Under the pieces are notes generated by a model, which saw nothing but the letters and a program-made list of their open reading frames with translations, had not been told where the DNA came from and searched no databases. DNA of 61,160 bases. Origin: an archaeon (GTDB lineage Archaea; Iainarchaeota; Iainarchaeia; Iainarchaeales; 1-14-0-10-31-34). The position numbers and the translations under genes are program-made. Below are positions 2,152-47,235 of this stretch, in pieces. The DNA lies in NCBI GenBank assembly GCA_043819075.1, contig JBDRFE010000029.1, forward strand, positions 1-61,160, read 5' to 3'. The first letter of the stretch is position 1. Every line of letters starts with the position of its first letter.

Positions 2152-3966
2152 GTGTTTAATTTAAAGCCTGATTTAGAGAAATTCCTTGTTATTTTAATTA
2201 TTGTTAATTTTCTTGTTATTGTTTTTCCTTTATTTCAGTTTCCTCTCCCCCAAAATCTTTACCCTGATTCAGCCCAGCATTACACCATGATTGAATTAAT
2301 AAAAGAAGATTTTAAGTGGGTTAACTATAATCCTGGCTATAGGAAAGCATTTCATTTAATGAGTGCTGTTGTTTCAAATTTCACTTCAGTTGGCATTGCA
2401 ATGGCTTTAGTCACATCATTTTTTGTTGCTTTGCTGATTTTTTTCTCTTTTAAGCTGGCTTTGCTTTTATCCAATGACAGGCTTGTTTCATTGTTCACTG
2501 CATTGCTTGTTTCAGGAATAACTATTGTTTCTGATGTTGGCTCAATTCCAAGCCCTGTTCCCCAGACAATTGGCTTGAGCTTGGGGATTATTTCCATGTA
2601 TTATTTTTTTAAGGAAGACTGGAAGGCAACAGGAATAGCAATCGGATTGTATGCTTTAACCCATACTTCTTTTCTTTATTTTATTGCCTTGATGGCTTTG
2701 GCTTCAGTTACAGAGTTATTCAAAGACAATAAACTAAATAAACTTGTTACTTTTGCAAAATCTTTTTCTGTTGTTTTAGTTGTGGTTGTTTTAACTGCTT
2801 TTCTTTCGCTTTCTGCCAAGATTTCTTTTTTTGATGTTTCCCCAAAAATAGCCATTTTAGGGCATGTTTCCCCTTTAAGTTTTCTTGATGTAACAGCCCC
2901 TTTTGGGATTATTCTTGTGGCTTTTTTCAGTGTTTTTTATTTCAGGAAAAAAATTTTTGAGGAATTAAACCATTTTATTGTGTTTTTGTGGCTTGTTTCT
3001 CCGATTTTGTTTTCCCAGATTTACTGGCTGGAGCTTCAATGGTTTCCAACCCAAAGAACATTAATTTTTATGCTGTTTCCTCTGGCGTTTTTTTCTGCAG
3101 AGGCGGTGTCGTTAATTAAAAACAAAAAAATCCTTTTTGTTCTTTCAGCGGTTTTTCTCCTTTTTTCTTTTTTCAGCCATTTTTATTTTTATGAAGAAAT
3201 GCCAAAAAATGATTTCAAGAAAGTTGTTGGAAAAGAAGACTTGGAAGTGATAAATTTTTTGAAGGAAAAGCCTTTGGACGAAATTGTTGTGGCAGAAAAC
3301 AAGTATAGCTATATGATTATTTTAAGCCACAAAAAACTGTCTTCCCAGAGGAATTTCTGGTTTATTTTAGTTGAAAAAAACATGAACAAACTTCTTGACT
3401 TGCATGATATAAAATATTTTTTGATAGACAAAGACAATTTTGAAAACTTTGAAGTAATTGAAGGGCTGGAAAAAGAATTTGAAAACAAAGAATTTGTTTT
3501 ACTTAAGGTAAAAAAAGAAGTGAAACCTGTGAAAACAGACAGACTGGAGGATTATGTTGTTGCGTTAGTTGCTTTTTGGGATCCAATCCGCACAACACAG
3601 AGCCTGGAGCCAAAATTCTTTAAAATAACCGCAACAGACACAAAAGAAGAAGTCTGTATTCTGGTTTATGATGGGTTAAATGTTTCTCCATGTCCGGAAA
3701 AAATTGACTTTGAAGTGAGCGGAAAAAAAGAAACATTAGTTGAGCTAATGAATTCTTTTAACAAGGAGTACTTTTACTTGAAAGCAGCTTATTTTATCAG
3801 AAAAAAAGAACTTCAAGTTCATCCGGATGAAATTGATTTTTTGGGGGAAGGCCCTTATCACATAACTTATTTAGCTCATACTTATTCCTGGGTAGGTGGA
3901 CCAGAGTACTCTAAGCCAAATCTTTTGATTGGAAAGTTTTTTTGGGATATCGGGCTTAACAGGTAA
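2152..3966 (+). CDS. Polytopic membrane protein, GT-C glycosyltransferase-like, with soluble C-terminal domain
   Basis: GTG start; first TM followed by PDSAQH (D..H loop typical of GT-C folds); about 10 further hydrophobic segments; about 250-aa soluble tail. Confidence 0.5.
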   Translation: MFNLKPDLEKFLVILIIVNFLVIVFPLFQFPLPQNLYPDSAQHYTMIELIKEDFKWVNYNPGYRKAFHLMSAVVSNFTSVGIAMALVTSFFVALLIFFSFKLALLLSNDRLVSLFTALLVSGITIVSDVGSIPSPVPQTIGLSLGIISMYYFFKEDWKATGIAIGLYALTHTSFLYFIALMALASVTELFKDNKLNKLVTFAKSFSVVLVVVVLTAFLSLSAKISFFDVSPKIAILGHVSPLSFLDVTAPFGIILVAFFSVFYFRKKIFEELNHFIVFLWLVSPILFSQIYWLELQWFPTQRTLIFMLFPLAFFSAEAVSLIKNKKILFVLSAVFLLFSFFSHFYFYEEMPKNDFKKVVGKEDLEVINFLKEKPLDEIVVAENKYSYMIILSHKKLSSQRNFWFILVEKNMNKLLDLHDIKYFLIDKDNFENFEVIEGLEKEFENKEFVLLKVKKEVKPVKTDRLEDYVVALVAFWDPIRTTQSLEPKFFKITATDTKEEVCILVYDGLNVSPCPEKIDFEVSGKKETLVELMNSFNKEYFYLKAAYFIRKKELQVHPDEIDFLGEGPYHITYLAHTYSWVGGPEYSKPNLLIGKFFWDIGLNR

Positions 3967-41582: not shown

Positions 41583-43886
41583 ATGGGAACAGTTTATGCT
41601 CTTGCTTCAGGAAAAGGCGGAGTGGGGAAAAGCCTGGCTTATGATGAATTTGTTAGCTTGTCTAATGGTTCTGTTATTCAAATAGGTCCATACATAGACA
41701 AACTGATTGAAGAAAGAAAAGAAGAAGTCAAACAATTAATCTGTAAGACGACTGAAGGAAAAGAAGAAATATTTGAAGTGCTGCAGCCTTCCACAGACTT
41801 AATTCTGGACACTGTTGAATTTAATGCTGAAAAACAGGAAATTATTTCTGAAATAAATCTTCCAGTTGCCTTGATGAGAAAGCCGGCTCCAAAAAAATTA
41901 ATTAAAGTTGAGTGTGCAGCAGGAAGCATTTCTGTTACTCCAGAGCACAAATTCATTGTGATGAGAAAAGGAAAGCTTGAAAAATTAAGGGCAGATGAAA
42001 TAAAAGAAAAAAAAGATTATCTTGTATTGCTGAACCAGTGCAATTCTTTTGAATTCCTTGAAGAAAAGATTTCAGCTGAAGCTGCTGAATTGTTAGGTTA
42101 TGTCACTGGAGACGGATACATGGAAGGCTATAAAATCCATGTTTTTTGTTCAGATAACAGCCTTCTTCCAAAAATAAGAGAAAACTTTATGGCTGTTTTT
42201 GGTTCATATAAAGAAAATGTTTCAAGAAACTTGCACAGAATTTCTTTTTTCAGAACAGGAACAGTGAAAGAATTGTATGAAAAATGTGGAGTAAAAATTT
42301 CAACTGCAGGAAGCAAGGAAGTCCCATCAGAATTATTTAACTCTTCAAATAATTCAGTGGCGGCTTTTTTGAGGGCGCTGTTTGACTGTGACGGTTCAGC
42401 CCACGTTTCCAGAAGGCAGATAGAATTTGATTCAAAAAGCAAAAAACTTGTTTTTCAGGTTGCATCCCTTTTAAGGACAAGATTTGGGATACTATCCCAG
42501 ATAAAGCCAACATTCAAAATTGCCAGAAACGGAAAAATGAAGGAAAAAGGAGAATACTGGAGAATGCATTTAACAGGAAACAACGCAGCAAAGTTTGCTG
42601 AATTTATCGGGTTCAACGATTCGGGAAAACAAGCAAGAATGATGGAACAGCTTAACAGCAGTAAAGCAGTAAACACAAACATTGACGTTTATCCTGTCGG
42701 AAAAATATTGAAACAAATCAGGCAAGAATCAAACATTTCTGCGCCAGCAATCGCAAAGACAATGAATTGTTCAAAGCAGATGATTTACGAATATGAATGG
42801 GAATATTACGCTTTATCAAAAGAAAAAGTAAAAAATTACATTAATGCATTTGAATCTCTTGGGGTTGAAAGCAAAATATTGAATTGGCTTAAATATTTAG
42901 TTAACTCTAATCTTGAATTCAGAAGAATTGAGAAAGCCAATGAATTTGAATACTATCATCCTTTTGTTTACGATTTTCAGGTTTCAGATAAAGGAGGCCA
43001 TTTTACTCATGCAACCGGAATAATAGTTTCAAATACAACTATTACAGCAAACCTTGGGATTGCATTGGCTCAAAAAGGAAAAAGAGTTTTATTGGTTGAC
43101 GCAGACATTGCAATGGCAAACTTAAGCCTGTTATTAGGAATGCAGTCTTCTCCGATTACTTTGCATGACGTTTTATTAGGCGAGAGTTCGTTGCAGGATG
43201 CAATCTATGACGGTCCAGGCGGAGTATCTTTTGTTCCATCTGGTTTAAGCTTTGAAAGCTATAGAAGAGTTGATTCAGCTAGATTAGCCGGAGTAATTGC
43301 TTCAGTTAAAGACGATTTTGACTACATTTTATTGGATGCGCCTGCAGGAATTGAAACAAACGTCATGTCAGCCTTAAGCGCTTCAGATAATGTTATTTTA
43401 ATTACAATGCCTATTTCTCCTTCAATTGCAGATGTATTAAAAACAAAAATTGTTGCTGAAAGGCTTGGAGCAAAGCCAATTGGCTTGATAGTTAATTTTG
43501 TGAGAGGCGAAAGAGGGGAAGTCATGCCAGAAGACATAATGAAAATGCTTGAACTGCCAATTTATGGTTTGGTTCCATACGACGAAGACATTAGAAAGTC
43601 TTTTATGCGCGAAAAAATAATGCCCACAATTTTATTTAAGCCAAACTCTAAAGGAGTTGAAGCAATAAACCTTGTGGCAGAAAAACTTACAGGAGTTTCA
43701 ACTGTAATCAGAATGAAAAAAAAGGGGCCCATAACAAGATTTTTAAACAAGTTGTTTTCTATCTTTAAAAGGAAACCAAAACAGGAAAAACAATTAAAGG
43801 AAAGAATACAGGAAAAAAAAGAAGAAGAAAGCTATGAGGATTTGCCTGAAATAAGCGAGGAAAGCATTGAAATAGGGCAAGAGTGA
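41583..43886 (+). CDS. minD: MinD/ParA-family ATPase, intein-containing
   Basis: SGKGGVGK/TTITANLG Walker A split by intein; VLLVDADIAMANL, YILLDAPAG, VPYD motifs; charged tail. Confidence 0.9.
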   Translation: MGTVYALASGKGGVGKSLAYDEFVSLSNGSVIQIGPYIDKLIEERKEEVKQLICKTTEGKEEIFEVLQPSTDLILDTVEFNAEKQEIISEINLPVALMRKPAPKKLIKVECAAGSISVTPEHKFIVMRKGKLEKLRADEIKEKKDYLVLLNQCNSFEFLEEKISAEAAELLGYVTGDGYMEGYKIHVFCSDNSLLPKIRENFMAVFGSYKENVSRNLHRISFFRTGTVKELYEKCGVKISTAGSKEVPSELFNSSNNSVAAFLRALFDCDGSAHVSRRQIEFDSKSKKLVFQVASLLRTRFGILSQIKPTFKIARNGKMKEKGEYWRMHLTGNNAAKFAEFIGFNDSGKQARMMEQLNSSKAVNTNIDVYPVGKILKQIRQESNISAPAIAKTMNCSKQMIYEYEWEYYALSKEKVKNYINAFESLGVESKILNWLKYLVNSNLEFRRIEKANEFEYYHPFVYDFQVSDKGGHFTHATGIIVSNTTITANLGIALAQKGKRVLLVDADIAMANLSLLLGMQSSPITLHDVLLGESSLQDAIYDGPGGVSFVPSGLSFESYRRVDSARLAGVIASVKDDFDYILLDAPAGIETNVMSALSASDNVILITMPISPSIADVLKTKIVAERLGAKPIGLIVNFVRGERGEVMPEDIMKMLELPIYGLVPYDEDIRKSFMREKIMPTILFKPNSKGVEAINLVAEKLTGVSTVIRMKKKGPITRFLNKLFSIFKRKPKQEKQLKERIQEKKEEESYEDLPEISEESIEIGQE
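41631..43034 (+). mobile_element. Intein in MinD Walker A (468 aa) with LAGLIDADG and HTH-like insert
   Basis: SLAYDE start; VTPEH block B; LGYVTGDG and RALFDCDGS; VYDFQV block F; ends IIVSN before +1 Thr. Confidence 0.92.
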
Positions 43887-43890
43887 TTTT

Positions 43891-44109
43891 ATGACAAGCA
43901 GACCATTTGATTTATTGAATGATTCAGTTGGAAAAGAAGTATTAGTTGTAACAAAAGGAAATTTAAGTTTCAGGGGCACACTAAAAGCCTTTGACATTCA
44001 CATGAACGTAGTATTAGAGAACGCAGAAGAATTAGTTGACGGCGAAGCAAAGAAAAAATACGGCAAACTCATCATCCGCGGCGACACAGTAATCTTTATT
44101 TCACCTTAA
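43891..44109 (+). CDS. Sm-like (Lsm) RNA-binding protein
   Basis: GTLKAFDIHMNVVLENAEE and IRGDTVIFISP Sm1/Sm2 motifs. Confidence 0.95.
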   Translation: MTSRPFDLLNDSVGKEVLVVTKGNLSFRGTLKAFDIHMNVVLENAEELVDGEAKKKYGKLIIRGDTVIFISP

Positions 44110-44206
44110 TTTTAAAGCAAGCCAATCTGTTTTCATTTCATCAAATAATATTTAATCATTTCACTTATTTAATGTTTTTATCCAATACTTTTTTCTGCAA
44201 CCAAAT

Positions 44207-44230
44207 GGGCTCTTAGATCAGTGGCAACAT
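44207..44230 (+). pseudogene. Relic tRNA 5' end (tRNA-Ala-like)
   Basis: GGGCTCTTAGATCAGTGGCAACAT has the layout of tRNA nt 1-20 (TAG at 8-10, D-loop GG) and aligns with the 5' end of the tRNA at 44958. Confidence 0.6.
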
Positions 44231-44252
44231 CCCAGAAAAAACAAAGGCAAAA

Positions 44253-44978
44253 ATGCTTCGAATGATTGAAGAAAATGCTTCATTAAACAATATTTCAAAA
44301 CAAACAGGGCTGGCAAAAACAACGATTTATTATTATTCAAGAAAAATTATTGGAAAAAAGTATTTTGAACCAGAATTTGAACTGGAATACTCTGAAACTG
44401 AAGGAGAAATTGCAGGCATTTTTGCAGGTGACGGAAGCCAGTTTCATGATTCAGAAAGAGGCAGTTATCAGGTTAATGTTCATTTTGGAAAAACAGATTA
44501 TGTCTTTTATGTAAAGGATTTGTTTGAAAAATATTTCAACAAAAAGTTCAGGTTGCAACAGGAAAGCAGAGGGCGAAGCAGGTTATGCACTCAATCAAAG
44601 AAAATTTTTTGCCATTTCAAGAATTATCTGGAATATGATTCAAGGGTTAAGCACTCAACTGTTAAATTAAAATCACTGAATTTCCCTGAAAAATTCCTGA
44701 TTGGTTTTTTGAGAGGCTTTCTTGATACCGACGGCACAATATCGCTGTGTTCTGACAGGCCAATGAGAATAGTTTACACTACAACTTCAAAAGAGCTTGC
44801 CAGTCAATTAAAAACTATTTTAAGGAAATTTGATATTGATTGCGGAGGATATACTGCTAAACGTTTAAATTTAAAAGATTTGCATCAAGTTTATATTTTG
44901 GCAAGATCTAATGAACAGTTTTTGCAAAAAGTGAAACCATTTAAAAGGAAAAGGCTTGGGCCTCTAGTGTATCGGTAA
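44253..44978 (+). mobile_element. Free-standing LAGLIDADG homing endonuclease-like ORF with N-terminal HTH
   Basis: IAGIFAGDGS and FLRGFLDTDGT motifs; N-terminal ISKQTGLAKTTIYYY HTH; last codons are tRNA nt 1-21. Confidence 0.85.
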
Positions 44979-45029
44979 CATATGCCCTTGGCATGGGCAA
45001 GACGCCGGGTTCGATTCCCGGGAGGTCCA
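44958..45029 (+). tRNA. tRNA-Ala(GGC)
   Basis: Cloverleaf: acceptor GGGCCTC/GAGGTCC with G3:U70, anticodon arm TGCCC-TTGGCAT-GGGCA, T arm CCGGG-TTCGATT-CCCGG, discriminator A. Confidence 0.95.
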
Positions 45030-45102
45030 CTTACATTATTTTTTCTCTTTTCAGAAATCTTTATATTTTATAACAACCCTAATTGATAGGATTGATTAAA
45101 AA

Positions 45103-46851
45103 ATGGCTGACAAAGAAACACTGTATTCAAGCATTAAGAAACTGCTTTCACTGAATGTATCAGAAGACGAAATAATAATGAATTTAGAGGAAGTCGGAAT
45201 AAACAAGCAGGAAGCAAAAAGCCTTTTAAGGGAAGTCAAGGCACAGCAGTCAGCCAAAAAAGAAGAAAAAAAAGAAGAACCAGTTAAAACACAATTCAAG
45301 GAAACAAGAAAAGAACTGCAAAAAAAAATCCTGAAAGAAAAAGAATTCATTGAAAAAGAGCCAGAACAGCCAAAGCCAAGAGAAAAACCCAAAGAAGTTT
45401 TTTCAAAGCTTCATGCAGGTGAAACAGAGGTATGGGAGAAAGGAATCCTGACAGTAGTTAATGAAAGGCTGGATGAAATAGAAAAAATCAGGGACAACAT
45501 AGAAGAAATAATTAACGAAAAAATAAAACAAGAACTTGAAAAAGAATCAAAAAAAATTAAAGTGTTATTGGAATCGCAAAGAGAATTGCTGGTTGACAAA
45601 ATAAATTCTTCTCTTGAAGTGAAATCAAAAGAATTAAGCTCTGGAATCGAGTCAAAGCTCATTGCATTAAAGGAAATAAAGATTTCTCTTTCAGAGACAA
45701 ACAGGAAAACAGAAGAAAAAGCAAAAGAAGATGAATTAATCCTTGGGGAAATTAAGTCAAAATTGAATGAAGTTGAAGTATCAAAAAAAGGCCTTGTCAA
45801 AGCATTAAAGAATGAAATGGAAGACTTAAAGAATGAATCAAAGCAGTTCATGTTTGATTCATCCAAGCAAATAGAAGAGCTTGATGACAGGGTAAACAAA
45901 GCCTTGGAGCTTGAATCAAAGATAACTGAAGGCTTAGTGAATACAGCTGAAAAAAAAGTTGAAGAAATAACTGTAAAACAGACTGAACGCATTTCAAGGG
46001 AACTTGAAAAAAAACTTAATGCATTCGAGGAATTAACAAGAAAAATTAATCCAAAACAGACAGAAGAAAACATTAGAAAGCTTTCAGCCGACTTTGAAGT
46101 AAAGATTTCAAACATTATAAGAGAAAAAGAAGATGAAATGGATGAAGTAATTAAGCTGAAAATAAAGGAAATAGAGGAAATAAAAAAGAAAATGGAACAA
46201 GATTCAACTGCAAAAAAGATTGCAGCTGAAATGGAAATGAAAATGGAGGCTTTCAGGATGAACCTTCAGAAAGAAATAGATGAATCCCTGCAGGAAATAG
46301 AGAACACTAAAACAGAATTAAAGAAATTTATTGCAGCCCAGCTGGCTGAATCTGCAACAGAATCACAGGGACAACTTGAAAGCCTGTACGAGCAAAGAAG
46401 GAAAGAGCTTGACAGCTTTCAGAAACAGATAATAAAAAACACTAATTTAACTGAATTCAAGCAGAAAATAGATGAACTTGATATATTCAAAGACCATTTC
46501 ATTAAAACCATAAAAAAAAGCCTTGAAGACATGAATGCCCAAAAAGAAGAAATTGAAGTTTTGTTGGAAAAAAGAGAAAAACAAGTAGAAGAAAGAATAA
46601 ATGAAGTTGACTCTAAACTAAAAGAATTAGATGAATTTGAAAAATCTTTTGCAAAAGAAATGGGATTAAAGTTAGAGCAGATAAGCAGAGCCAAGTCATT
46701 AAGACAGGAAGTTCGGGAAATAAGGGCGAGAACGCCTGAAACCAGAACTTCTTCTGCGCCAGAAAAAGAAAAATCGGTTAAAGCAACAAAAACTGCGTTC
46801 AAAAGCGGGAAACAAAAAAAGTCTTCTTCTCCCGGCAGAGGAATACGTTAA
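45103..46851 (+). CDS. Long coiled-coil hypothetical protein
   Basis: 582 aa, E/K-rich heptad pattern, no TM or NTPase motifs. Confidence 0.75.
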   Translation: MADKETLYSSIKKLLSLNVSEDEIIMNLEEVGINKQEAKSLLREVKAQQSAKKEEKKEEPVKTQFKETRKELQKKILKEKEFIEKEPEQPKPREKPKEVFSKLHAGETEVWEKGILTVVNERLDEIEKIRDNIEEIINEKIKQELEKESKKIKVLLESQRELLVDKINSSLEVKSKELSSGIESKLIALKEIKISLSETNRKTEEKAKEDELILGEIKSKLNEVEVSKKGLVKALKNEMEDLKNESKQFMFDSSKQIEELDDRVNKALELESKITEGLVNTAEKKVEEITVKQTERISRELEKKLNAFEELTRKINPKQTEENIRKLSADFEVKISNIIREKEDEMDEVIKLKIKEIEEIKKKMEQDSTAKKIAAEMEMKMEAFRMNLQKEIDESLQEIENTKTELKKFIAAQLAESATESQGQLESLYEQRRKELDSFQKQIIKNTNLTEFKQKIDELDIFKDHFIKTIKKSLEDMNAQKEEIEVLLEKREKQVEERINEVDSKLKELDEFEKSFAKEMGLKLEQISRAKSLRQEVREIRARTPETRTSSAPEKEKSVKATKTAFKSGKQKKSSSPGRGIR

Positions 46852-46878: not shown

Positions 46879-47061
46879 GCGAAGATATTGCTTCGTTGCT
46901 CGCGCTCGAAACCGTTAACGCGAAGCATATACGGCTTTACGCCGCAGCCGTCACGTTCGGCTGGTGTACGCGCACCACGTAAAGTGGTGCTAGCACGGCT
47001 TTATGCCGTGCGCCGTCACACTCGCACGGAAGCGAGTCGGTGCTCGCGGGCGAAACCGCGA
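46879..47061. repeat. GC-rich tandem hairpin array abutting the tRNA-Val 3' end
   Basis: At least seven stems, e.g. GCACCAC-GTAAA-GTGGTGC, GCACGGC-TTTAT-GCCGTGC, CAGCCG/CGGCTG, ACTCGC/GCGAGT, TCGCGG/CCGCGA. Confidence 0.8.
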
Positions 47062-47133
47062 TGGACCTGGGCGGAATCGAACCGCCAGTCTTCTGCACGT
47101 CAAGCAGACGTCATGCCACTAGACTACAGGTCC
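47062..47133 (-). tRNA. tRNA-Val(GAC)
   Basis: Minus strand: acceptor GGACCTG/CAGGTCC, anticodon arm TCTGC-TTGACGT-GCAGA, T arm GGCGG-TTCGATT-CCGCC, discriminator A. Confidence 0.95.
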
Positions 47134-47235
47134 AAAACCCTTTCCAAAGGGTTTAACGAAATGCACAGGGCAAGCCTGTGCTGCTTTTTTAAATTAACAA
47201 AAATATGGCTTAAAATCTTGTGTTAGGTAAGCTTT

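Follow-up and report, generated by a model that had tools for sequence, protein, structure and literature searches.

The stretch of archaeal DNA analysed here (contig JBDRFE010000029.1 of GenBank assembly GCA_043819075.1, 61,160 nucleotides (nt) in length; hereafter the window) carries a free-standing homing endonuclease gene of the LAGLIDADG type which runs directly into the 5' end of an alanine tRNA gene, tRNA-Ala(GGC). We propose that the two genes form one mobile cassette of ~0.8 kb, in which a helix-turn-helix (HTH)-LAGLIDADG gene is joined end-to-start to its own tRNA-Ala(GGC), and that this cassette replaced nt ~20-72 of the tRNA gene formerly resident at the site. We assign this reading a probability of about 0.75. 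The event would have taken place in an Iainarchaeia-type DPANN archaeon, with the resident tRNA-Ala(GGC) gene 3' of lsm as its target, and what is left of the old gene would be its promoter and first ~20 nt (44207-44226). The insert of ~0.8 kb contains the endonuclease gene, the tRNA and nothing else.

The relic of the resident gene and the imported tRNA

A truncated tRNA 5' end stands ahead of the endonuclease open reading frame (ORF). Its first 20 nt are identical in 19 of 20 positions to the lsm-adjacent tRNA-Ala(GGC) of two related loci, L061 and L062, while shuffling the spacer 20,000 times gave no match better than 15/20. The relic tRNA 5' end reported in a preliminary description of this locus, which was made from the sequence alone, is thus genuine and not a product of chance. 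With the tRNA now present the relic agrees in only 11/20 positions. By blastn, 20 identical nt, including two bases of the leader, connect the relic region with the relatives. The spacer 5' of the relic contains TATTTAATnTTTTTAT, common to the window and the empty-site relatives, and the block TTATTTAATGTTTTTAT occurs both in the leader of the window and in the spacer before the resident tRNA of the empty-site loci L062 and L063. Because of the 19/20 match, the leader bases and the spacer shared with relatives, fragment 44207-44226 is best read as what is left of the resident tRNA gene's 5' end, with its own promoter region still in front of it. Capture of the promoter, also put forward in the preliminary description, is likely as well, the relic being preceded by the putative resident promoter region in a form conserved with empty-site relatives.

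The state of the site before the insertion is represented among relatives. Scanning of metagenome contigs with Lsm gave 80 relative loci, 13 of which carry tRNA-Ala(GGC) ~50-70 nt after the Lsm gene with nothing in between; one further locus has a full endonuclease copy and one has its last third only. The closest informative relatives, as judged by Lsm, are L061, L062 and L063, with 85-88% Lsm identity and coding flanks ~82-83% identical in nucleotide sequence (for both L062 and L063, Lsm 85% and flanks 82-83% identical). Their resident tRNA reads GGGCTCTTAGATCAGTGGTAGATCGCTCGG...AGAGTCCA. Comparison of the lsm-tRNA-Ala locus with relatives devoid of the ORF, suggested in the preliminary description, therefore finds a resident tRNA in place and matching the relic, and the empty sites together with the 5' remnant support the proposed entry into a resident tRNA-Ala(GGC) gene. 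The incomplete endonuclease gene (L126, 921-1181) lies before tRNA-Ala(GGC) and represents a decaying copy. Decayed endonuclease remnants were also sought in the longer lsm-tRNA gaps of relatives, where L126 was the only case.

Two pairs of filled and empty sites delimit the exchanged segment. In the first, L140 (filled, with an endonuclease 78% identical to that of the window) and L061 (empty) have flanks 93% and 96% identical, and the difference between them is an 885-nt block that replaces the resident tRNA from nt ~15 onward and leaves a relic of nt 1-16; host sequence (TTCGCGGTTC...) restarts directly 3' of the new tRNA. In the second, the flanks of L001 (filled, endonuclease 65% identical) and L069 (empty) are 94% and 92% identical, resident nt 1-29 are kept 5' of the endonuclease gene, and the new tRNA of L001 has an intron which the empty L069 allele does not have. 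Presence/absence polymorphism is thus found between L140 and L061, between L001 and L069, and between the window and L062/L063, and in run X4 an empty-site relative occurs together with the cassette-bearing organism. Downstream of its new tRNA, L001 also has remnants of one or two tRNA 3' ends in a decayed state (T arm, acceptor strand and TAAAAT; 2123-2156 and ~2235-2262), perhaps left by the resident 3' end and by an earlier cassette.

The tRNA following the endonuclease gene is foreign along its whole length. Only 38/72 of its positions are identical to the resident type, and the differences extend over the acceptor stem, D arm, anticodon stem, variable region and T stem. In the acceptor stem the 3' strand GAGGTCC pairs at every position with the new 5' strand GGGCCTC; opposite GGGCTCT of the relic the same strand would form a C6.A67 mismatch and two wobbles, and the D-stem strand GAUC of the relic cannot pair with ACAU of the new tRNA. 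The preliminary description had the tRNA rebuilt from the 3' end of the endonuclease gene, which would supply a diverged 5' half. This part of it has to be abandoned: because the whole tRNA is diverged and its acceptor strands co-vary with each other, a chimera with only a new 5' half is ruled out in the window, and splicing of the relic to the downstream 3' part is likewise ruled out, since the hybrid would be mispaired in the acceptor stem and would have no D stem. Judged from these comparisons, the cassette comprises the endonuclease gene and a complete foreign tRNA-Ala(GGC), and nt ~20-72 of the resident gene appear to have been replaced. The D arm UAGUGUAGnGGnUAACAC is common to the endonuclease-linked tRNAs of the window, L001, L002, L003, L032, L115, L140 and L141 and is found in 0/13 empty-site tRNAs; this distinct D arm may make the linked tRNAs immune to cutting. 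In L126 the tRNA-Ala(GGC) is almost identical to that of the empty-site locus L121, which hints that strong divergence is not universal among cassette tRNAs.

That the LAGLIDADG ORF ends within an intact tRNA-Ala(GGC) had been described correctly to the base: its final seven codons, GGG CCT CTA GTG TAT CGG TAA, are nt 1-21 of the tRNA and encode GPLVYR-stop. The tRNA has 7/7 acceptor pairs, G3:U70, the D arm GUGU/ACAU and a cloverleaf as its minimum free energy structure. A permissive Rfam scan of 43800-45300 detected the tRNA alone, with no intron or other RNA family, and left the relic unmatched. With a complete tRNA downstream and a relic/tRNA hybrid that is not viable, the endonuclease gene is free-standing and is not contained in an intron or intein. 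The earlier notion of a selfish LAGLIDADG element without intron or integrase is supported in this respect, as is the fact that the tRNA gene was kept working.

Other details of the junctions call for more caution. The sequence AACAT does occur at both of them (44226-44230 and 44977-44981), as had been pointed out, but it is a single 5-mer and deserves less weight as evidence than it was given. GGCAACAT agrees with the new-type D arm GGTAACAT in 7/8 positions and only poorly with the resident GGTAGATC. The shared AACAT may be the end of a donor-type D arm, in which case a crossover in the D loop might have made the relic a chimera. Coincidence is just as likely, or the bases may be no more than a part of the decayed 5' coding region of the endonuclease; the bases 44226-44230 are also in frame with codons homologous to the N-termini of relatives. 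In the window the stop codon falls in the D loop at the point where the relic breaks off, but this agreement is not a property of the family, in which the stops lie at tRNA nt 8-10, 13-15, 19-21 or 21-23 and the ends of the relics range from nt 16 to ~33. Invasion of the D loop, similarly, describes the position of the left scar in the window, but not its range of nt 16-33 between loci.

The endonuclease and its family

The product of the window ORF matches Pfam LAGLIDADG_3 with E = 4.6e-15. It has two LAGLIDADG motifs in one chain, EIAGIFAGDGS and LIGFLRGFLDTDGT, and an N-terminal HTH at residues ~1-33. The AlphaFold2 (AF2) model reaches a predicted local distance difference test score (pLDDT) of 91, with the LAGLIDADG helices, residues 48-60 and 146-160, above 90; disorder is confined to the tail encoded by the tRNA (residues 238-241, pLDDT below 50). 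Foldseek against PDB finds the I-DmoI-type fold (alpha-beta-beta-alpha-beta-beta-alpha, twice), I-DmoI itself being the best small structural match (E = 1.7e-9, template modelling score for the target 0.78). Further matches are PI-PfuI, the endonuclease domain of TliVMA and I-Tsp061I, and WhiA is also among the hits. The family profile retrieves I-DmoI by sequence as well (E = 6e-4). In an alignment of 28 homologues G59-D60-G61-S62 and D158-T159-D160-G161 are invariant, with D60 aligned to the catalytic D21 of I-DmoI (GDG) and D160 to its catalytic E117 (AEG). Pairwise ratios of nonsynonymous to synonymous substitution rates (dN/dS) among the window, L140, L141 and L001 are 0.08-0.20, which corresponds to purifying selection. 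On the strength of its sequence and model, the protein looks like a working endonuclease that would cleave DNA. As for its N-terminus, the in-frame stretch 44217-44252 closes with codons for IPEKTKAK, which are homologous to the residues MPLETKEK at the N-terminus in the closest relatives, and the stretch holds no ATG, GTG or TTG. The ancestral start codon seems to be either lost in the window or non-canonical (perhaps ATC at 44229).

The window ORF has 74 homologues with 30-100% identity, the best of them from Iainarchaeum/Diapherotrites metagenome-assembled genomes (MAGs), and many of their C-termini (LGPLV, LGLLV, LGR...) read as translated 5' ends of tRNAs. We inspected 59 homologue loci from species-representative genomes with ARAGORN, introns being allowed. 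A tRNA on the + strand starts at or just before the ORF stop in 46 of the 59, and in 38 the stop lies within such a tRNA. Because it recurs at so many loci, the overlap of ORF and tRNA cannot be a matter of chance. Typical overlaps measure 10-11, 14-15, 21 or 23-24 nt, in differing frames; in those of 10-11 nt the stop is the tRNA's own U8-A9-G/A10. In DPANN the usual partner is tRNA-Ala(GGC), and small groups are associated with Ala(CGC), Arg(TCG) and Gly(CCC); in bacteria of the candidate phyla radiation (CPR) distant homologues are found before tRNA-Tyr(GTA) and after tRNA-Thr(TGT). In a maximum-likelihood tree of the endonucleases the tRNA partner follows the clades (support 100/98 for the Tyr clade and 100/99 for the Arg clade), and the partners cluster on the tree better than in any of 200 shuffles.

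Upstream copies of the first 18-31 nt of the tRNA are significant in L016, L023 (18/18), L027, L043 and L050 and borderline in L059, and each of the archaeal relics inspected has a TATA-like box ~25-40 nt 5' of it. Most members of the family have no relic at all. In viral contigs only distant LAGLIDADG genes (21-37% identity) were found, with no sign of a viral carrier.

Loci of the CPR branch situated before tRNA-Tyr(GTA) are L043, L045-L047, L049, L053, L056, L058 and L059. Six of these nine lie between tRNA-Thr(TGT) and tRNA-Tyr(GTA), the gene overlaps or abuts the tRNA in L045, L047, L049, L053 and L056, and upstream copies of the 5' part of tRNA-Tyr are kept in L043 and L059. Some contigs of this branch are labelled Gammaproteobacteria, probably as a result of mis-binning. 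Among the archaeal loci, L022 (3816-4798) and L019 (2853-4820) have family members before tRNA-Ala(CGC) and an endonuclease-free tRNA-Ala(GGC) upstream; in L022 the endonuclease gene is placed between the two tRNA-Ala genes and overlaps neither.

The coding sequence seems to accommodate promoter signals, too. In most archaeal members a conserved codon triplet for F-I/L-K/N, ~32-42 nt before the tRNA, spells TTTATAAA or TTTTTAAA. At this site Phe is encoded by TTT in 30/30 cases, against a background of 65% in these ORFs, and Ile by ATA in 13/14, against 38%. Such a codon bias points to an archaeal TATA box for the tRNA, located inside the coding sequence of the ORF. The site is weakened in the Iainarchaeia subgroup, the window having TTTTTGCAA (44919-44927). 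The PFK codons ATTTAAAA, at -24 to -17, were considered as the TATA box of the window tRNA and rejected, being too close to the tRNA start.

Sequences upstream of the endonuclease gene show features of their own. The motif CACTGGACA(T/A/C), sometimes in the tandem form CACTGGACACTGGACA, is located ~51-62 or ~187-229 nt before the start codon of the endonuclease. It is present in 21/45 archaeal loci against ~4 hits expected (L008, L009, L011-L014, L016-L018, L020, L023, L024, L034, L040, L041 and L001 carry it), with no clear copy in the window, and could be an operator for the HTH domain, a promoter element or the left end of the cassette. The window's CAGTGGCAACAT qualifies as a copy of the upstream motif CACTGGACAT only if a 2-nt gap is introduced, and fails when at most two mismatches are permitted. 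In Woesearchaeota/Nanoarchaeia the leaders of ~200 nt share long inverted repeats, AAAAAGAGAACACGCAAAACTGCC ... GCAGTTTCGC ... TTCTCTTTTT (L016 3800-3960, L023 3820-3958 and L027 3040-3165), and a second hairpin in these leaders ends at GGAGGT before the ATG; they may constitute a structured regulatory 5' untranslated region.

Proposed mode of replacement and competing explanations

The replacement may be pictured as follows. The endonuclease would cut resident-type tRNA-Ala(GGC) genes between the D loop and the anticodon arm; on the left side the scars break off at nt 16, ~20, 29 and as far in as ~33. The break would be repaired from a cassette-bearing copy, between close relatives via the flanks and between distant relatives via the few tRNA bases common to both alleles, and repair would copy in the endonuclease gene along with a tRNA allele whose different D arm is presumably not cut. 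Alanine decoding would never be lost and no splicing would be required; an intron is not needed because a complete tRNA arrives with the endonuclease gene. As the endonuclease gene of the window starts 46 nt behind the start of the relic, transcription from the captured promoter of the resident tRNA is the simplest assumption, and the most likely one. The tRNA would either be co-transcribed and released by RNase P or be started from the weak AT-rich box in the 3' end of the ORF. One may speculate that cutting of a joint transcript by RNase P at 44958, by which the mRNA loses its stop codon, might limit expression of the endonuclease. In the single metatranscriptome of a related study the coverage of the locus is confined to a low-complexity stretch, 45256-45289.

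Several other explanations of the locus deserve consideration. The endonuclease gene might have been inserted in the D loop with only a replacement 5' part (nt 1-~21), leaving a chimeric tRNA. The relic breaks off at nt 18-20 and AACAT stands at both junctions, and in L016, L023, L027 and L050 the upstream copies are nearly identical to the first 18-27 nt of the new tRNA, as would be expected of such an insertion; at these four loci the predictions of 5'-part replacement and of whole-tRNA import are indistinguishable. In the window, however, nt 26-72 differ too (anticodon stem, variable region, T stem and 3' strand of the acceptor), the 3' strand has its pairing partner in the new 5' strand rather than in the relic, and the whole tRNA differs within both L140/L061 and L001/L069, the intron of L001 having no counterpart in the empty allele, which makes import of the 5' part alone improbable. 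A different proposal would place the ORF within a giant bulge-helix-bulge intron or a split tRNA, with the relic as the true 5' exon. Introns at non-canonical positions and split genes do occur among archaeal tRNAs (PMC3218864, PMC4033280). LAGLIDADG enzymes, I-DmoI among them, are also encoded by introns of archaeal rRNA genes. Yet the downstream tRNA is complete by itself, a hybrid would contain the C6.A67 mismatch and an unpaired GAUC/ACAU, the window has no resident-type 3' half, most family members lack a relic, and the same architecture exists at tRNA-Tyr in CPR bacteria. Bacteria are not known to possess the archaeal splicing endonuclease. With a defective hybrid tRNA and an architecture that is also bacterial, we reject the splicing or split-tRNA model as extremely unlikely.

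The strong purifying selection, the HTH domain and the occurrence of WhiA among the fold hits could also be taken as signs of a domesticated, non-mobile DNA-binding host protein, derived from LAGLIDADG enzymes in the manner of WhiA and serving, for example, as a regulator of tRNA transcription. The gene order MinD-Lsm-ORF-tRNA is kept in several Iainarchaeia and one Micrarchaeota MAG, and the conserved upstream motif CACTGGACAT could be an operator. Domestication is nevertheless unlikely, given that metagenome sites with lsm-adjacent tRNA-Ala comprise 13 clean empty ones against one full and one remnant, that near-isogenic pairs differ by presence of the gene, that the scar of a destroyed resident tRNA speaks of invasion, and that a decayed copy exists in L126. 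Moreover, both catalytic acidic residues are invariant in the family, whereas WhiA is not known to have them. Alternatively, the tRNA might have been replaced by recombination of another kind, such as allele exchange or the action of an integrase element that has since departed, with the endonuclease gene as a passenger. Elements of the recombinase type do leave 5' tRNA fragments before intact tRNAs, as in the tRNA-Thr of Caldiarchaeum (PMC3293823). The insert of the window nevertheless consists only of the endonuclease gene and tRNA, this two-part unit recurs at dozens of loci with the identity of the tRNA tracking the endonuclease clade, and neither integrase genes nor att-type repeats were seen bordering these cassettes. 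A passenger role is very unlikely on these grounds.

Some points also weigh against replacement by a homing cassette or restrict its scope. The linked tRNA is itself an uninterrupted tRNA-Ala(GGC), and any immunity would have to rest on sequence differences. The ancestral start seems to be lost in the window, so that this copy of the endonuclease may be expressed poorly or lack part of its N-terminus. The endonuclease identities (78, 70, 65, 57 and 49%) roughly track those of the host Lsm and MinD, for which reason much of the spread within Iainarchaeia could be vertical and gains could be rare. Synteny cannot separate vertical descent from repeated homing in this group, because the site is fixed by the tRNA and the identities roughly follow the host genes. 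The polymorphism of filled and empty sites could be due in part to loss by recombination with an empty allele, and at the right junction repair across species would have only ~5 bases in common (GTCCA) to work with. The differing scar positions argue for several events; erosion is also possible.

Related systems and further features of the locus

A full-text literature search found no description of endonuclease-tRNA cassettes in DPANN or CPR. The closest analogues appear to be the mobile endonuclease ORFs (mORFs) of fungal mitochondria (PMC3630166), which are the nearest in function, and SegB of phage T4 (PMC2330249). The mORF gene hybrids are known from atp6 of Allomyces macrogynus and from atp6, atp9, cox2 and nad3 of Glomus (PMC3630166). 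There, a free-standing LAGLIDADG or GIY-YIG gene displaces part of the host gene and travels with a foreign version of that part, the host gene remains functional without an intron, and the native part stays adjacent as a relic that is closer to close relatives than the imported part is (PMC3630166); the corresponding values in the window are 19/20 for the relic and 38/72 for the imported tRNA. Targets of mORFs are protein-coding genes, and the replacement 3' (C-terminal) end is placed before the ORF (PMC3630166), whereas the cassette of the window has a chromosomal tRNA target in an archaeon, its ORF precedes the tRNA and extends into the 5' end of the latter, and a whole tRNA is imported. 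The hosts are DPANN archaea and CPR bacteria. The cassette works in the manner of a mORF hybrid without belonging to that group. SegB is likewise free-standing and located among tRNA genes, cuts the tRNA region of a relative without SegB, and is co-inherited with flanking tRNA alleles by gene conversion, a process termed "intronless homing" (PMC2330249). It differs in being a GIY-YIG enzyme of a phage, active in mixed infections, whose gene does not overlap a tRNA, and neither a truncated tRNA scar nor a cassette of one gene and one tRNA is described for it (PMC2330249).

I-DmoI, I-Tsp061I and kindred monomeric LAGLIDADG enzymes of archaeal rRNA introns, together with those of CPR rRNA insertions (PMC11270868), share the fold, the catalytic layout and the kinds of host with the enzyme of the window. 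All of these reside in rRNA introns or intervening sequences that are removed from the RNA; the window enzyme has an additional N-terminal HTH, is linked to a tRNA gene and is not encoded within an intron. The study of CPR rRNA insertions makes no mention of tRNA (PMC11270868). The tRNA-Thr element of Caldiarchaeum consists, like the locus described here, of a 5' fragment, an insert and an intact tRNA of the same isoacceptor, and is polymorphic in a natural population (PMC3293823). Its insert, however, measures 1.8 kb and encodes a recombinase, and it is thought to arise by site-specific integration (PMC3293823). The window has no recombinase, an insert of 0.8 kb and a diverged foreign tRNA overlapped by the endonuclease ORF.

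Tentatively, and with the odds still somewhat against so broad a claim, these elements might together make up a class of "tRNA-replacement homing cassettes" that spans phyla of DPANN archaea and CPR bacteria and has so far escaped description, in which each endonuclease lineage is specialised on one isoacceptor, the endonuclease travels with an immune tRNA allele and the host is held in an addiction-like manner. The two genes are interlocked, as the ORF takes its stop codon from the tRNA and, in most archaeal members, the putative TATA box of the tRNA lies in the F-I/L-K codons of the ORF; if the selfish gene were neatly deleted, the tRNA would fall silent, hence the addiction-like hold. Hosts usually tolerate a homing endonuclease gene because it is eliminated from the product of the host gene by way of an intron or intein. 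Here the same tolerance would be gained on an RNA gene by another route, the invader supplying a whole spare tRNA. Single essential tRNA genes in reduced genomes would thus be targets of site-specific selfish elements. If this is true, repeated overwriting would be a source of orphan tRNA halves, giving a testable route to the tRNA fragments in archaeal genomes, and possibly of some split or intron-bearing archaeal tRNA genes. It would also explain abrupt differences in D arms and introns between tRNAs of close relatives and account for tRNA alleles of close relatives that differ at half of their positions. The family would further provide a compact set of enzymes likely to recognise defined tRNA-gene sequences, and its overlap of coding sequence, stop codon, promoter and tRNA amounts to unusually dense dual coding. 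These elements are relevant both to research on mobile elements and to the evolution of archaeal tRNA genes.

The features of the locus are collected in Table 1. It is bounded by the Lsm gene (43891-44109) and a gene for a 582-amino-acid (aa) coiled-coil protein (45103-46851), and the 5' neighbours of the cassette are an intein-bearing MinD gene followed by the Lsm gene, which mark the organism as an archaeon. The TATA-like TTTTTAT mentioned in the preliminary description near 44175 is indeed present.

Table 1. Features of the endonuclease-tRNA locus, in window coordinates
Feature	Position	Strand	Basis or remark
Promoter and leader of former resident tRNA-Ala(GGC)	44170-44206	+	Sequence reading; putative promoter role
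TATA-like TTTTTAT	44175-44181	+	AT-rich spacer, 26-32 nt 5' of tRNA fragment
Relic, resident tRNA-Ala(GGC) nt 1-20, GGGCTCTTAGATCAGTGGCA	44207-44226	+	Comparison with L061/L062
tRNA-like fragment GGGCTCTTAGATCAGTGGCAACAT	44207-44230	+	Sequence reading
AACAT	44226-44230	+	Second copy 44977-44981 in new tRNA; origin uncertain
In-frame open stretch 5' of first ATG	44217-44252	+	ORF bounds, protein alignment, L140 sequence
Free-standing homing endonuclease gene, 241 aa, HTH and double LAGLIDADG	44253-44978	+	Pfam, homologues, AF2, Foldseek, dN/dS
First LAGLIDADG helix EGEIAGIFAGDGS	44394-44438	+	Catalytic Asp60 codon 44430-44432
Second LAGLIDADG helix FLIGFLRGFLDTDGT	44688-44735	+	Catalytic Asp160 codon 44730-44732
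Codons F-L-Q (TTT TTG CAA), TTTTTGCAA	44919-44927	+	39 nt 5' of tRNA; family TATA position, weakened
Complete imported tRNA-Ala(GGC), no intron	44958-45030	+	ARAGORN; Rfam 55.4 bits
Overlap of ORF and tRNA, 21 nt	44958-44978	+	tRNA nt 1-21 = GPLVYR-stop

Some neighbouring sequences vary as well. In L061 a segment of ~980 nt (2720-3702) lies between lsm and the resident tRNA-Ala; it contains a minus-strand gene of 151 aa and GC-rich hairpins and is not related to the endonuclease. GC-rich hairpin repeats are also located 3' of the tRNA in L061 and L140 (L140 1-453) and are like those of the window at 46879-47181, around a tRNA-Val. The MinD gene of the window (41583-43886) contains a LAGLIDADG-bearing intein (41632-43030), which is polymorphic among the same relatives, being present in the window and L062 and absent from L060, L061, L063, L001 and L141. 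The intein and the tRNA cassette lie 1 kb apart and assort independently; L062 combines the intein with an empty tRNA site.

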